44,545 nucleotides of DNA from Escherichia coli. GTDB taxonomy: Bacteria; Pseudomonadota; Gammaproteobacteria; Enterobacterales; Enterobacteriaceae. The position numbers were made by a program, and so were the translations under genes. The stretch lies in the NCBI RefSeq assembly GCF_003334385.1, contig NZ_QOWN01000035.1; one strand, given 5' to 3'. Under the pieces are notes generated by a model, which worked only from the letters and a program-made list of their open reading frames with translations, ran no database searches and was not told the origin of the DNA. Position 1 is the stretch's first letter. Each line of letters opens with the position of its first letter. Positions 32,126 through 39,040 of the stretch are shown in pieces.

Positions 32126-32612
32126 ACAGAGCATTAGCGCAAGGTGATTTTTTGTCTTCTTGCGCTAATTTTTTGTCAAACACATTACGTCGTTTGCTGA
32201 ATTTACAACCATGCTCAGTATCTCGATAAGCGCAGAGAAATGATGCAATGGTGGGCGGAATGGCTTGATGGGAAGGCTGAGTAATTAATCTTTAATCAGA
32301 GGGTAACAATGCATGGCTCAGTGAACTAAGCCAATCATTTGTGATCTCCAATTGTTAATCTTATTAGTTCTAGATACTTGATTTATGCCATGATGCTTGT
32401 AGATTAGAAAGCAGTAGACTATACAACACTGCGGTCAAATAATTATCAAGCATAATCACGGTATACACATTTTTTTGATAGCGTAAGGATAGTGAGCCAT
32501 CGATGCCATATTCAATATTTATGCAATTTAAGCATGGTTTATATACACTAATTTTCTTAGTGCCCACAAAATCTTTGATTGTACAAAAAACACAGGGGTA
32601 ATGGAGATTTTT

Positions 32613-33779
32613 ATGTTTGACGGATTTAATGGCTTTTTAATTGCTTCTTTATCGGTGATTACTTCACTTTCTGTTGCAAGAATATTTGTCACAGAAACAC
32701 ATTTATCACCTATCAAAGGAAGGAGTGAATCAATTGATGGGCTTAGAGGATTTCTTGCTTTAATGGTTTTCCTTCATCATTCCAGTTTCTGGTGGCAATA
32801 CATACATACTGGGGTTTGGTCTGATCCTGATTCGTTATTTTATACTAATATTGGAAAAATAGCTGTTATTTTCTTTTTTATGATTACAGGCTTCTTGTTC
32901 TTCGGGAAATTGATTTCGAATAAATCAGTAAATTGGGAAGATTTATTTTGGTCAAGAATAATGAGACTAACACCTATGTATCTGGTTTCGTTATCTCTAC
33001 TATTCATAATTGTGTTCTATGTTTCTGATTGGAAAATTAACACAGGAATTGACAATCTCATAATATCTATGGCGAGATGGGTTCCTTTTTCTTTCCTTGG
33101 AATGCCTGATGTTAACGGTCTTCACAAGACGTCGCTTATCATGGCCGGAGTTCCGTGGTCACTTGTTTATGAATGGTTTTTTTATTTATCTCTTCCTTTT
33201 ATGGCTTTTATAATGAGAAGAGACAAATTTAATACTTACACAATTCTTAGTATTGCGAGTGTATTTGCTTTTATTTTCTATCCATCATTAAAAATACATA
33301 TTTTATCATTTGTTTTTGGTTATCTGGCAGCAAAAATAAATCACAAACTGTCTAACGGCTTGCCTTTCAATAAAATATTATCAAGCTTATTCGTCATCGT
33401 TATCTTATGTGTAACTTGTTTTTTAATTCCAAATCCTTACAATCCAATAACAATATCACTCTGTGGTATTGCATTTATTATGATATCAAATGGATGCGAT
33501 ATTTTTGGAGTTCTTAAGATAAAAACCTGTCAAGTTTTTGGAGAAGCTACATATAGCATGTATCTTCTACATGGCATTATACTTTTTATAACATTTAAAA
33601 TAATACTTCCGGTTAGCTATGTTAATCAAATTAACAGCCTTGTATTTTCAGCTATTATTATAATCCTCTCTGGGTTTATCACGCTTATATCATTACTATG
33701 TTTTAGATATATTGAGACACCGTGTAGTAAGTTTAAAAAATTTAATGTACTAACATACACAAGAAGAAAACTTCAGTAA
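32613..33779 (+). CDS. acyltransferase-3 family membrane protein, probable O-antigen O-acetyltransferase (Oac-like), about 388 aa
   Basis: About 10 hydrophobic segments and the AT3 motif R...HH (IDGLRGFLALMVFLHHSS); very AT-rich; sits between the tailspike and att like serotype-conversion genes of P22-like phages. Start at 32613 preferred (GGAG 6 nt upstream) over 32601. Confidence 0.7.
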   Translation: MFDGFNGFLIASLSVITSLSVARIFVTETHLSPIKGRSESIDGLRGFLALMVFLHHSSFWWQYIHTGVWSDPDSLFYTNIGKIAVIFFFMITGFLFFGKLISNKSVNWEDLFWSRIMRLTPMYLVSLSLLFIIVFYVSDWKINTGIDNLIISMARWVPFSFLGMPDVNGLHKTSLIMAGVPWSLVYEWFFYLSLPFMAFIMRRDKFNTYTILSIASVFAFIFYPSLKIHILSFVFGYLAAKINHKLSNGLPFNKILSSLFVIVILCVTCFLIPNPYNPITISLCGIAFIMISNGCDIFGVLKIKTCQVFGEATYSMYLLHGIILFITFKIILPVSYVNQINSLVFSAIIIILSGFITLISLLCFRYIETPCSKFKKFNVLTYTRRKLQ

Positions 33780-33838: not shown

Positions 33839-36175
33839 TCAGATTGGATAATTACTTACTCTAACATCAGCAAAACTAGTTGTTCCTGTCAAGGAAATAT
33901 CCATGCGTTCATCACAAGCAGGAGCAAGAAAAACCTCTACAGCTACACATTCTGATCTTTTAACATGATATATTGCCTGACGCTCAAGCCACGAATTATC
34001 AGATAATAATTTTATTGCAGTATTAGATAACGAATTACCTGTAGAATCCAATTCGCGAAAAATGACCGCCGATGATATTGATGTTTCTGATAACGTCCAT
34101 AGTCTTACATAGACAGCACTTCGTTGAGCTACTCGAAGTGTTGCCACTAATAAACTCTGTACTGATGCGGTATTCTTATCGTTAAGAGTGAATGCATAAG
34201 GCGTACCTACAGGCTTTGTAGTTGCATCTGTTTTCTCTGGCGCAATAGATATAACAGTCTGAAAAAATCTATCCTGATTAGCTAGAATATGACCAGCTAT
34301 GGAACGCATCGGTAGAGGGTTAGTACTATGGACAGCATCACTTCTTCCAACACGAAAACCACCGCCTGTATTCTGGCTATTGGCAGTGATAAATACGTCT
34401 TGGTTATTGTCTACAAACACTTCACCTGAACACGAACTAGTTATGATCTTACCTACAGAGTTAAATCTTGGTTTTATCTCTTGATTGTCAATTCCGCTAA
34501 TTAGTCCAGGCACAAATTCGAATGATACACCAACACCGTTACAGCTAACAGCCGTGATATCTTCAACGTTGATGTCATACCCATTGACAATGCGTACCGC
34601 ATTATTGTTTACCCTTTCGGCATAGACATTTTTAATTCGAATGTGCTGTGATTGGAAGTATGTAGACTCAGAAGGATACGAGTAATTAGTCACGAATATA
34701 CCAGCCAAGCCAGCCACACTGGTTGCTGCAGCAACATACTTTCCACCAAGAACATCAATATTCTCTCCTTGAATTTCAAGAAAATTTTTAGTTGCTTTTG
34801 ATTTTCCTGTTTGAATTCCGATATTGCCAGCAAGGAATACACCACGGCGTGAACCATCCGTAGAGTGATGGCAATCGTTCATGTCGAATGTTTTGCATGC
34901 ATCGATAACCCAATTTTCGCAACCTCTCTTAAAGTCATTCAATGTACGATGGCCGAAAGCAGTGTTGCCGAAACTGAAGATGTTTTTAATGGTATATGTA
35001 CCGTATTCGCCAGGTGAATCAATAGAGCCATTCATACACTTAAATGCATTGAATCCAACAGCGGTAAGCATTGGGTCTGTTCCCTCTGATGAACAATACA
35101 AATAATTAATACCATCAATCATTCCACCATTAGTTGTGTATCCTTCCCATGCTTCATGTGGGCAGTTTTTGAAATGACATCTTAAAGCAGTAATATTGCG
35201 ACCAATGGCACCGTTATTGAAATGCCAGCAGAATGCGCGAATAATCTTCTGCGGCGCAATGTTATTTATTTCGTAACCGTCTTGGTATTGTCCATCAAAA
35301 CAAATATCCTGCAGCATCGCAAAATATAGATCCTTGTCAGGGTTCTTACGGATGAACCAAGAGTAATAGCCAAAGCCATTATTCTCAACGTCTTGCTTTG
35401 TTAGTGAGATTGGTCTGATAGTAGTACTTGACTTACCTGCACCAATCCAATGAAACCAGTCGCCAATTTGCACACTACCACTAAACGAGATCACATCTAT
35501 ACCTCTAAAATCTAGAGGAACCCTTTTATATTCTGATAATATTTGTAATTTATTTATTACCGATGCGCAGTCAACTCCGCTCTGAATGTAGCGACTGCAC
35601 ATGATCGCATCATTGAAATTAGAACCATCCATGACGCATAACCATTGACTATTAAGATTTGGATTTTCTGTTGGCGCTACAGTTTTCGGAAGGGAACCAA
35701 GCCATTGGTAATAAAGTCCATCAGTGTATTTAAGGACCTGTTTTCTATTGGTAATAGTATATCCAGACGCAAAATCGCCATCAATTATTCGACTGTATTC
35801 TGATATTTCGAAATTTCCCTTTGCCCACAAGGAAAACTGATCAGGATCATACTTCAGAACATTCGGAAAATAGAACTGCTGCGCTCCATATGCATCATAA
35901 ACAGCCATCGAATGACCTTGCACAGTTACAAACTTGGCAATCTGCCCGTTATATACAGGATATCCAGCAGCGTTAATGATGATTGGTTGCGATACAGGAA
36001 CATGAGAGCCGTCTTCGTTCTCCACATAAACCTGGATCTGGTTTTCAGTATTTACCGGATCAGTGTCAATTTTTCCGATATAAATCTTTCCATTAGCTAC
36101 GGCTTTAAAAGAACGAGCCATAGTGAAGAGTTGCGAAGGCATGCTTACCACAACATTTGCGGTGATATCTGACAT
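33839..36175 (-). CDS. tailspike protein: P22 gp9-like N-terminal head-binding domain plus divergent receptor-binding domain, about 778 aa
   Basis: From the second ATG (GGAG 7 nt upstream): [42 protein letters not shown]...[15 protein letters not shown]...LKYDPDQFS closely resembles the P22/HK620 tailspike N-terminus; the remaining ~650 aa are divergent and AT-rich. Confidence 0.85.
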
Positions 36176-36270
36176 TTCATTGCTCCAGACGAATGATATG
36201 ATGCAACCATGATGTGATTGCATACCGAAATGGTACTATTGAGTATTTATCCAGTAGGTTACGATGCCAT

Positions 36271-36288
36271 TCCACCCAACTGGTGAGG
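36271..36288. promoter_or_regulatory. Imperfect palindrome, candidate Mnt operator in the tailspike/mnt divergent region
   Basis: tCCACC-caact-GGTGag resembles the half-sites of the P22 Mnt operator (TCCAC...GTGGA). Inference only. Confidence 0.3.
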
Positions 36289-36296
36289 CATCAAGG

Positions 36297-36557
36297 ATGT
36301 ACAGCAAATACGACGAGGCGCAGTTTCACTTGAGACTTCCGCATGAACTCCACGCGAAAATTAAGCAGCGTGCGAAGATGAATAACAGGTCGCTGAACTC
36401 AGAGATAATTGCAGCGATGGAGGAATCATTGGATAAACAAAGCTCTGCATCAGTTTACATTGACGATGCAGAGCGTATGGCAGAACAACAATCTGATATG
36501 GTTAAGAAAATTGTCTTTGATACGCTCAAGAAGCTATATAAAAAAGACAGCAGATAA
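36297..36557 (+). CDS. mnt: Mnt-like ribbon-helix-helix repressor, about 86 aa
   Basis: QFHLRLPHELHAKIKQRAKMNNRSLNSEIIAAMEESL...NDAERMAEQQSDMVKKIVFDTLKKLYKK aligns with recalled P22 Mnt (HFNFRMPMEVREKLKFRAEANGRSMNSELLQIV...DAERLADEQSELVKKMVFDTLKDLYKK). Start at the internal Met preferred; the ORF could begin at 36264. Confidence 0.8.
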   Translation: MYSKYDEAQFHLRLPHELHAKIKQRAKMNNRSLNSEIIAAMEESLDKQSSASVYIDDAERMAEQQSDMVKKIVFDTLKKLYKKDSR

Positions 36558-36646
36558 CCATCCGTTACGGAGGATTTATGCACAGAGATATGCTGAATAT
36601 TGCGTTCTACATATTTGGTTTTTACACGTTCCTGGTGTTTGCGAAG

Positions 36647-39040
36647 CTATTCTGACAGCGCATCAGACTTAGCCCCCTGAGTCAGGGCGTTAATGGCCTT
36701 TTGTGCCTGCTGCATGGCTTTCTCGAACGCTGTTGATCCGCGTGGGGTGTTTGCCATTCGGAGCATTGCATTTCTGAATGGCTCGCTCTCATAGGCGCGA
36801 GTAAGAAGTCCGTAGCTTACCGCTGCGCCAGTTGTCGCAGGGTTCATTGCCGTCCCATACCCGATAATGAACGGGATGGTTTGCTGCCCTGTTGGTGTTG
36901 TTACTGCCGCTTTTGCAGCCTGCTGCGTGGATTGCAGGTAGTTTTTCAATCCTTTCAGATAAGCAGCGTCCTGCCCCTTAAATGTGATGCCAGTCTGGTT
37001 TTGCAGGATGTTAAGCTGCCGAAGGAACTGGTCAGGGGATCCGCCAGATTTCTCCATCGCCTTTCCAATGATGCCATTGCGCATTTGCGCCCTGCCAACA
37101 CGACCAACTGAGTTATACAGCGTCTTAATTTCCGATTTGTTCTTGCTGAATAGCATGTTGTTGACAACTTCCGGCGTCAGATCGCCTTTCATGAGAACAT
37201 TCTTCAGCCTGGTATTCTTTAGTTTCGCGGCTTCGTCAGCGTAGACGGCATTGGCCTGCTGATATTTACGGAGAGTATCGTTGCCAAGATTCTGACCAAT
37301 GGCACCATTGATATCGTCGGTCATTGCCTTGTAAACGCGCTGAATGGCAGCATCGGAACGGTTTGGTAACACTGGTCGCTCACCCTTCACGTCCATTCTG
37401 AACTGGCTGCGCAGATCGCTTAATTGCTTCAAATCCAGATTTACCGGACCATCAGGACCAGCATTGCGAACAAGCTCATCACGATATGACTGAAGTTTTG
37501 AAATTGTCTCGTTATCAGCGACCTTACCAAGCTTCTGCAGATTAGATATTTCTGTATCAATCTGCTGAATTGCTCGCGCTGGCTGAATGTTTACTCCAGC
37601 CATAGCATTCTGAACCTGCTCCAGTCGATTACCGGCGGCACGACGAATTCCTGATGTTTTCGCTTTAAGGCTGTCAATAACAACCGCTGGATCATACTCA
37701 CCGAATTTATCGGCAAATCTCTGCACCAACTGGCTTCTCGCTTCCTGTTGCGTTGCTCTCATTCCGCTTGTGCCAGCCAGGGGGATATTTTCTGCTGTAG
37801 TCTGCGCCATTTTCCCGACGCGGGAAGTAGGCTGTAACAGGTCTGTGGTGTGCAGAGGAACTCCTTCACGCTCTGCAAACCTGATAGCCTGTTGAGCTTC
37901 TGGTGCTATCGAACCACGAACACCACGATAAGCAGAACCTAATCCACGTCCGGCAGCGTTAATAGCACCGCCAGCCAGCACACCAACGCCTAAATCGGTG
38001 GCGAGTGCTTCCGCATCATCTTTCGCACTGTTTGCAGCAAGTGATCCAACTGCGTTTTCTGCTAGAAGGCGAGTTGCCCCCTGAGCAATTCGACCAGCAA
38101 GTGTTGGTGACTGTGTTGCCGCTCTCTCAACGCCAGCAGGAGTGAGGTAAGGCAATGCTTCAGCAAATACCCTTCCCTCTGTCGTTTGTGGAGTCAGCGC
38201 GCCTTGCTGAAGGCCAAAGTCCTGCTCTAATCCCTGCGTTGTTACTCGTGGTGCTGGTTGATATGTACCATCGCCAATGCCGAGTTTACCTCCAGCCCAA
38301 GCCGCCGCGCTTGTTACAGCATCAGTGAGTTCAGCAGGTATGTTCGCTACGTTGATTCCTGCCTGTAGTAAGCCGCGCCCGGTTTCAGCAAGTCCATTAC
38401 CAAGGTCAGACATTATTCCGCCTTGCTGCTGAACAGGTTTCGGTGCGACAGAACTTACGGGTTGAGGTGGCTGCTGACTGGCTGCCTGCTGCTCAATCTG
38501 AGCAAATGGATTATTTGGGTCTGACTGCACGCCTGATGCCGATACTTGTTCGGATGACTGTGCTTCCAGTTGTGCAAACGGGTTGTTAGGGTCTTGCTGA
38601 GGATGTACCTTTGCAGAGGTGGCGCGCTGTTCGACTGTTGAGTCTGTCACCGGGTCACCCGCCCATTGAGCAAAGCGATCATCAACGTAACCGCGGCCTT
38701 CAGATCCTGGCGTATATTCACCACGCTTTGCCTTCATAACGTTGCCGGGACCGTCGTGATAAGCCTGAAGAGCGTCACGCCAGTTACCAAACTGCTGGTA
38801 CATCTTTGCCAGATAGCGCGCGCCAGCGTCAGCCTGATATTCGGGGTTTTGCATTTGCTCATCGGTATAACCCATATCACGCCATGTCCCAGGCATGACC
38901 TGAGTCAATCCTACAGCCCCGGCGGAGCTTACTGCGGCAGGGTTGTAAGAAGACTCCTTGGCACCCAGTGCAGTCATCAACCCTTCTGGCACACCGTAAC
39001 GTGCGCCAGCCTGCTCTAACAAATCACGGTAATTAGCCAT
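36647..39040 (-). CDS. virion ejection/internal protein at the P22 gp16 position, with an N-terminal lytic transglycosylase (SLT) domain, 797 aa
   Basis: N-terminus carries an SLT-like catalytic motif (GAKESSYNPAAVSSAGAVGLTQVMPGTW...YLAKMY), followed by a tandem DPNNPFAQ(L/I)E repeat and a long Ala/Gln-rich region; last gene of the ejection-protein block. Confidence 0.7.
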   Translation of the reverse strand: MANYRDLLEQAGARYGVPEGLMTALGAKESSYNPAAVSSAGAVGLTQVMPGTWRDMGYTDEQMQNPEYQADAGARYLAKMYQQFGNWRDALQAYHDGPGNVMKAKRGEYTPGSEGRGYVDDRFAQWAGDPVTDSTVEQRATSAKVHPQQDPNNPFAQLEAQSSEQVSASGVQSDPNNPFAQIEQQAASQQPPQPVSSVAPKPVQQQGGIMSDLGNGLAETGRGLLQAGINVANIPAELTDAVTSAAAWAGGKLGIGDGTYQPAPRVTTQGLEQDFGLQQGALTPQTTEGRVFAEALPYLTPAGVERAATQSPTLAGRIAQGATRLLAENAVGSLAANSAKDDAEALATDLGVGVLAGGAINAAGRGLGSAYRGVRGSIAPEAQQAIRFAEREGVPLHTTDLLQPTSRVGKMAQTTAENIPLAGTSGMRATQQEARSQLVQRFADKFGEYDPAVVIDSLKAKTSGIRRAAGNRLEQVQNAMAGVNIQPARAIQQIDTEISNLQKLGKVADNETISKLQSYRDELVRNAGPDGPVNLDLKQLSDLRSQFRMDVKGERPVLPNRSDAAIQRVYKAMTDDINGAIGQNLGNDTLRKYQQANAVYADEAAKLKNTRLKNVLMKGDLTPEVVNNMLFSKNKSEIKTLYNSVGRVGRAQMRNGIIGKAMEKSGGSPDQFLRQLNILQNQTGITFKGQDAAYLKGLKNYLQSTQQAAKAAVTTPTGQQTIPFIIGYGTAMNPATTGAAVSYGLLTRAYESEPFRNAMLRMANTPRGSTAFEKAMQQAQKAINALTQGAKSDALSE

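Follow-up and report, generated by a model that had tools for sequence, protein, structure and literature searches.

The window considered here, a stretch of 44,545 nucleotides from Escherichia coli (assembly GCF_003334385.1, contig NZ_QOWN01000035.1), contains a P22-like prophage in which a mnt-like repressor gene converges on a gene for a DNA-ejection protein, the analogue of phage P22 gene 16. At their meeting point lies an unannotated open reading frame (ORF) of 25 sense codons on the mnt strand, with the product MHRDMLNIAFYIFGFYTFLVFAKLF. The small ORF follows the mnt stop codon by 20 nucleotides, has a GGAGG separated from its ATG by 4 nucleotides, and overlaps the end of the convergent ejection gene by 9 nucleotides. 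The original prediction, made from the letters alone, had described this arrangement correctly in its distance from mnt on the same strand and in its few-base overlap; the ORF and its GGAGG are both present, but each had been placed one base too low (36577-36654 and 36568-36572, in place of the positions in Table 1). Comparison with related sequences suggests that 36578-36655 is probably a genuine gene, weakly constrained and restricted to one lineage, for a predicted single-pass membrane peptide.

In the predicted peptide a polar head (MxRD) precedes a hydrophobic helix of about 18 residues, rich in aromatics, and (A/E)KLF forms a short tail, a layout that would suit a single-pass peptide of the inner membrane. 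Its grand average of hydropathy (GRAVY) is 1.06 and rises to 1.84 within residues 5-22; 8 of its residues are aromatic, and the single transmembrane helix proposed originally is a reasonable reading of the sequence. Pairing of the Shine-Dalgarno sequence with the 16S 3' end places this ATG in the top 0.9% of the 1519 scored in the window. Of 331 ATG ORFs of 20-50 codons in the window, five combine a GRAVY of at least 0.8 with Shine-Dalgarno pairing of -6 kcal/mol or better, and the small ORF ranks first. Judged from the window alone it is a good candidate that is not clearly beyond chance; the case beyond chance comes from related sequences.

Table 1. Positions of the small ORF, its neighbours and nearby signals in the window
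Feature	Position	Strand	Basis
Small ORF with stop codon (ATG 36578, TGA 36653-36655)	36578..36655	+	Sequence; intact in 123/126 relatives; frame-specific synonymous excess; hydropathy
Shine-Dalgarno-like GGAGG	36569..36573	+	Pairing energy -9.5 kcal/mol
20-nucleotide spacer from mnt stop (TAA 36555-36557) to small ORF, holding the mosaic junction	36558..36577	+	Sf101 and Sf6 homology limits
mnt-like Arc/Mnt-family repressor gene, 86 residues, upstream cistron	36297..36557	+	phrog_795 E=8e-36; 'Arc family DNA-binding protein' on homologue (Prokaryotic Genome Annotation Pipeline, PGAP)
Convergent DNA-ejection (DNA transfer) protein gene, 797 residues (TAG 36647-36649)	36647..39040	-	C-terminal part of Sf6 gene-13 / P22 gene-16 type
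Two-gene overlap, 9 nucleotides	36647..36655	both	L24, F25 and stop are the reverse complement of ejection-gene Ser, Glu, TAG
Weak promoter-like CTGACA-17-AATGAT upstream of mnt; candidate start of a mnt-small ORF transcript	36169..36197	+	Consensus scan only
Weak terminator-like hairpin then T-run, antisense within the ejection gene; possible transcript 3' end	36923..36937	+	Scan; weak

Related loci were drawn from IMG/VR in two samples, one of 80 loci found with the 200 C-terminal residues of the ejection protein and one of 120 loci reached through a DNA pattern in the ejection-gene end. Both are independent of the body of the small ORF, and together they yield 126 distinct sequences after de-duplication. 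An ATG, 25 codons and a TGA, free of indels and nonsense codons, are found in 123 of these, and in the remaining three the whole segment is swapped for unrelated AT-rich DNA with the junction directly after the TGA. Conservation of the reading frame in related phages was the test to which the original prediction had exposed itself beforehand: frame, start and stop are retained in all 123 distinct sequences that carry the segment, across 65 nucleotide haplotypes and about 35 peptide variants. No indel occurs within the 69 nucleotides of the small ORF in any of the 65 haplotypes, though the adjoining upstream spacer shows one. The overlap with the ejection gene, itself strongly constrained (ratio of non-synonymous to synonymous diversity, piN/piS, 0.02), is nearly invariant at 0.11 events per site, and TGA>AGA is the sole change seen there.

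The kind of substitution that has accumulated points to coding. A minimum spanning tree linking the 65 haplotypes was used to count events over nucleotides 3-68, which lie outside the overlap. Of 106 events, 40.5 are synonymous (38%) and 65.5 non-synonymous, where 26% synonymous would be expected (p=0.006; ratio of non-synonymous to synonymous rates, omega, ~0.59); by codon position, 48 fall on position 3, 31 on position 1 and 27 on position 2. The synonymous excess is also found within the core of the small ORF (p=0.01). Among open frames it is confined to that of the small ORF. Neither of the alternative frames on the same strand has one, nor does the antisense frame in register with the codons (p=0.46 to 0.997); an excess recurs in one antisense frame, but that frame is interrupted by a stop and has its wobble position in common with the sense frame. 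Rates were taken from a joint tree of the small ORF and 300 nucleotides of the ejection gene, whose third codon positions serve as a neutral proxy at 5.5 events per site. Core codons 9-21 reach 1.5 events per site, about 27% of the proxy (1.9, 0.46 and 2.15 at positions 1, 2 and 3), and the start codon has 0. Position 2 of the core is thus almost frozen, and replacements in the core are chiefly hydrophobic-for-hydrophobic (F/L, L/M, V/M, C/Y/F).

The ejection-gene frame also stays open, for 64 further codons past its TAG (36455-36649, minus strand), running antisense through the small ORF into mnt. A C-terminal read-through extension of the ejection protein was considered on this account and rejected; given the lack of synonymous excess in the antisense frame, the open frame is probably a by-product of antisense codon structure.

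The boundaries of the small ORF coincide with recombination junctions. Four non-homologous upstream sequences each join it at the ATG: mnt, in 70 distinct sequences (upstream ...TACGGAGGATTT-ATG); a gene for a lipoprotein of 161 residues, in 35 (...AAAGGTATCGCCT-ATG); an Sf6-type spacer adjoining the tailspike gene, in 16 (...GAGATGAGTCT-ATG); and a second tailspike spacer, in 2 (...GGTGGTGGATTAGCG-ATG). In 105 of the 123 distinct sequences it lies about 20 nucleotides 3' of a same-strand gene. Two homology limits bracket the junction. Homology of Sf101 to the window ends a few bases past the end of mnt, and 17 nucleotides after mnt Sf101 has another type of ejection gene and no small ORF, whereas in Sf6 and many E. 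coli prophages homology starts 1 nucleotide before the ATG. Because Sf101 has the same mnt with another ejection gene and lacks the small ORF, the latter belongs with the Sf6-type gene-16 end and not with mnt. It would thus be a self-contained mosaic module, found always together with the 3' end of an Sf6-type ejection gene. Exchange has occurred within it as well. Two deep alleles differ at 11 of 21 nucleotides in codons 2-8, encoding MQRDMLNI versus MQRDTINL, and the lipoprotein-context copies have the diverged 5' part (MQRDTINL) fused to the common core; recombination must therefore have taken place inside the small ORF.

The other edge can be seen in relatives without the small ORF, such as E. 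coli MB64 (locus L087, 1304-1497). In these the ejection protein ends ...LSW in place of ...LSE, about 190 nucleotides of AT-rich spacer, unrelated in sequence, lead on to the tailspike gene, and the recombination junction falls exactly at the small-ORF stop codon.

DNA and tblastn searches detect the small ORF in phages IME10, ECO26.1, Sf6, Gally, vB_EcoP-720R6 and vB_EcoP-683R2 and in Salmonella phage VSe13, whose allele is diverged throughout, MQRDTINLVFYIFRFFTFMMFTKLF. None of these phage records annotates it. Among 5426 complete E. coli genomes it is present in 334 (about 6%), where PGAP likewise misses it. A single E. coli hit in which the small ORF appeared without the ejection gene (H94) turned out to reflect an IS1 insertion and deletion. 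A degenerate-pattern search of IMG/VR for more divergent alleles returned only three known VSe13-type loci and chance matches.

Databases hold little else. None of 8 peptide variants had an exact match in a collection of 15 billion proteins, tblastn against phages matched only the small ORF itself, and neither the phage genomes nor 5.8 billion predicted proteins contain a longer homologue. The last result, together with a start codon of its own in every context, led to rejection of the remnant of a larger gene, a remnant having been offered as one of the original possibilities. Full-text literature searches with three peptide strings returned no papers, and topical searches found nothing on the small ORF. 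A small unannotated hydrophobic prophage protein is of a familiar kind; the family itself is undescribed.

The most likely route to expression would be translation in the lysogen, with the small ORF as the last cistron of a mnt or lipoprotein transcript that runs antisense to late transcription, because it lies 20 nucleotides after mnt with a strong Shine-Dalgarno sequence and no intervening terminator. Scans found no terminator-like site between mnt and the small ORF or in or adjoining it. Shine-Dalgarno pairing is strong after mnt and in the two rare second-type tailspike spacers (-6.2 and -9.8 kcal/mol) and modest after the lipoprotein gene (-3.9 kcal/mol), and the accessibility of the initiation region is ordinary in all four contexts (P(unpaired) 0.24-0.39). 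The promoter-like site upstream of mnt recurs in a lipoprotein-carrying relative (L090), and such sites, found by consensus scan, are no more numerous than in shuffled sequence. The terminator-like hairpin downstream lies within coding sequence, so its conservation is uninformative.

What the comparison supports directly is conservation of the frame, a codon-type substitution pattern and junctions at the small-ORF boundaries; we infer translation, membrane insertion and expression from the prophage. Several observations weigh against a gene, and many of them favour the main rival reading, a functionless open spacer hitchhiking with the conserved 3' end of the ejection gene. The association with that gene is a trivial consequence of the overlap, and linkage does not prove a functional connection. 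An omega of ~0.6 means weak constraint overall, far below that on the neighbouring ejection gene, and weakest at the N-terminus, where codons 2-8 have 4.4 events per site, about 80% of the neutral proxy. T-rich hydrophobic codons are seldom one step from a stop, so such a frame could last without selection, and the lack of nonsense codons is uninformative by itself (P=0.13 under neutrality for 86 events, in a first analysis of 53 haplotypes). Some relatives do without the small ORF entirely. Loss of the stop through TGA>AGA, a change synonymous in the ejection gene, extends the product to 52 residues in two short IMG/VR contigs and one decayed prophage, and the VSe13 allele places an Arg in mid-helix (G14R). 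In the Sf6-type spacer the Shine-Dalgarno pairing is weak (-2.7 kcal/mol) and the scan found no sigma-70-like promoter upstream of the small ORF.

The range, too, is narrow, comprising Escherichia/Shigella and one Salmonella phage. Among 100,044 species-representative genomes there are 2 true matches, both in Escherichia; the other 90 of 92 are chance matches in unrelated AT-rich genomes, the degenerate core pattern used for that scan being too AT-rich. The absence of annotation and of homologues is likewise in keeping with a spacer. PHROG, NCBIfam and PADLOC models gave 0 families at E<=1 to 10, a search with low power for a query of 25 residues. Against an idle spacer stand the synonymous excess found in the sense frame and no other, the near-frozen second positions and low overall rate of the core, the absence of indels next to a spacer that has one, and the meeting of four unrelated upstream sequences at the ATG and of the replaced version at the TGA. 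An idle spacer is accordingly judged unlikely, while still to be taken seriously.

The stop-loss form occurs outside the 123 intact sequences, in what are read as decayed prophages only. Decay is evident in an IS21 element in the tailspike gene and a truncated gene 16. The three stop-loss loci are L158:225-383, L159:2501-2659 and L297:2106-2264. The 52-residue form is the sole form of the small ORF in protein databases, where it appears as 'Uncharacterised protein [Klebsiella pneumoniae]', and a search with it returned only that variant.

Two further explanations give the segment a function of another sort. The Ibs, ShoB, TisB and DinQ class comprises small hydrophobic peptides, and the product of the small ORF could be a membrane-damaging peptide like these type I toxins in size and hydrophobicity, repressed by antisense RNA from the convergent late transcript or from an unrecognised small RNA. 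An Sf6-type late operon must indeed cross the whole small ORF in antisense to reach the tailspike gene. However, the late transcript is made only after induction, so repression by it would be pointless, and the scan found no promoter-like or terminator-like site on the minus strand within 36000-37000. There is no structured leader or significant fold, and in 57% of distinct sequences the small ORF lies in the mnt transcript, which is needed constitutively, behind a strong Shine-Dalgarno sequence close to the consensus, a placement difficult to square with a toxin. No NCBIfam, PHROG or PADLOC toxin family matches, and the toxin-like character suggested originally gained no positive support; it is now considered very improbable. 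The least probable of the alternatives is a cis-acting nucleic-acid element, either in the 3' untranslated part of the ejection mRNA (for stability, or for A/C-rich Rho loading) or as a recombination 'linker'. Its appeal lies in the constant attachment of the segment to the ejection-gene end, in an A/C-rich, G-poor minus strand (30 A, 18 C, 12 G, 18 T), and in a core that is near-identical across contexts with clear recombination inside the ORF. Yet no stable or conserved structure is apparent (z-scores of -0.17 for the plus and -0.34 for the minus strand), the segment has no Rfam match, and an inverted-repeat search found nothing relevant. Moreover, three-base periodicity with a synonymous excess in one frame is unexpected for a non-coding element, the antisense frame continuous with the ejection gene is unconstrained, and the invariant ATG is left unexplained.

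If the small ORF is a gene, its position suggests where to look for a role. In P22 the interval from gene 16 to mnt holds sieA and orf59a, both in the orientation of mnt, and the end of sieA is 22 nucleotides from the gene 16 stop. In prophage HS1 of E. coli HS, a convergent gene of 212 residues in the same slot ends 21 nucleotides from the gene 16 stop; from its position it is taken to be the type-B sieA of Leavitt et al. (PMC10883804). The sieA-type location noted in the original prediction is thereby borne out. All 22 sequenced sieA-carrying phages infect Salmonella (Leavitt et al. 2024, PMC10883804), and in the E. coli and Shigella phages examined the 25-codon ORF occupies the slot. The peptide might act in the inner membrane as an accessory ('moron') function expressed by the lysogen, and one guess is that it interferes with DNA delivery by superinfecting P22-like phages. 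Exclusion is the most attractive of such guesses because the slot is shared with sieA and because mutations that escape SieA fall in the C-terminal regions of gp16, whose gene is the one overlapped by the small ORF, and of gp20 (PMC10883804). In its specific form, a lysogen-made helix of 25 residues would bind Sf6-type gp16 at the C-terminal part that inserts into the membrane, or else the conduit of gp16 and gp20, and block DNA delivery as exclusion or self-immunity. This is conceivable, and it is regarded as a long shot.

Comparison with known systems yields partial likenesses only. Like sieA (P22, types A-C, HS1), the small ORF is on the mnt strand, is the nearest gene to converge on gene 16, and stops at or beside the gene 16 stop (22 nucleotides off in P22, 21 in HS1, a 9-nucleotide overlap here). 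Its product is likewise hydrophobic, presumably located in the inner membrane and expected to be expressed from the prophage. However, SieA proteins have 164-212 residues and several helices against 25 residues and one predicted helix, with no sequence similarity; their conserved FxRYPxEAxxFNK motif, present in P22 SieA, cannot fit into the small peptide; and sieA has its own mapped promoter, whereas the promoter scan found none for the small ORF. Type I toxins (Ibs, ShoB, Ldr, TisB, DinQ, Hok) resemble it in having fewer than 50 residues and a single hydrophobic helix, in often escaping annotation and in being overlapped by antisense transcription. They differ in that the small ORF has no family match, dedicated antisense promoter or structured 5' leader, is a downstream cistron behind a strong Shine-Dalgarno sequence, and is aromatic-rich rather than aliphatic-rich.

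Small regulatory membrane proteins such as AcrZ work by binding larger membrane proteins. AcrZ, MgtS, MgrB, KdpF, CydX and PmrR of E. coli and Salmonella are similar to the predicted peptide in size and in having one transmembrane helix, and proteins of this kind are typically lineage-restricted and weakly conserved. The small ORF shares no homology with them and differs in being phage-borne, tied to a virion gene and without a known partner. The exclusion proteins encoded by prophage morons (HK97 gp15, Cor, T5 Llp) are accessory, prophage-expressed and envelope-located, with genes among or near late structural genes; in a third of relatives the small ORF follows a lipoprotein gene whose product is weakly Cor-like, at the signal peptide only. 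The small peptide is much smaller and has no homology to these proteins, and a classical moron has its own promoter and terminator, neither of which the scans found directly beside the small ORF.

About a third of related prophages have this lipoprotein gene (lipobox region MKKSLLIIPLLLVGC...; phrog_6067) between the small ORF and either mnt or arc, for example at L090:995-1480 (+), L003:1026-1511, L004:995-1480, L005:965-1480 and L089:970-1455. Its product was considered as a SieA type and rejected, having an LVGC lipobox and no similarity to P22 SieA. PADLOC and NCBIfam assign it to no family; it may be a lipoprotein of lysogenic conversion or of exclusion that has yet to be characterised.

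Other features of the prophage deserve mention. The mnt gene stands alone, without arc or ant, directly adjoining the tailspike gene, and its N-terminal DNA-reading residues are unlike those of P22 Mnt. The only obvious control target for this orphan repressor is its own small operon, including the 25-codon ORF. The ejection protein matches lytic transglycosylase models over residues 3-103, its N-terminal domain. Its length varies from 797 residues here to 665 in Sf6 gp13 and 569 in some E. coli copies, and its last 200 residues are 99-100% identical in the best 80 IMG/VR loci; the gene therefore combines an N-terminal part of strongly mosaic make-up with a C-terminal part that hardly varies. 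Just past the tailspike gene, an ORF of 392 residues (32601-33779, +) matches the VanT membrane acyltransferase-3 domain, and its counterpart in a related E. coli prophage bears the name 'acyltransferase family protein'. It is probably a lysogenic-conversion gene for an Oac-like O-antigen acetyltransferase. The first ~32 kb of the window resembles host chromosome.

If the small ORF is a real gene, it has been overlooked in the model phage Sf6 and in P22-like prophages present in about 6% of complete E. coli genomes, its length falling below the cut-offs of gene callers. If it is non-functional, it serves as a caution that the persistence of short hydrophobic frames by itself says little. Should the exclusion reading be true, the peptide would be a functional replacement for SieA in the P22-like phages of E. 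coli and Shigella that lack sieA, and the smallest exclusion protein known. That idea is directly testable, since the ATG can be changed while sparing the ejection gene and P22/Sf6 ejection-protein hybrid phages exist already (PMC10883804).

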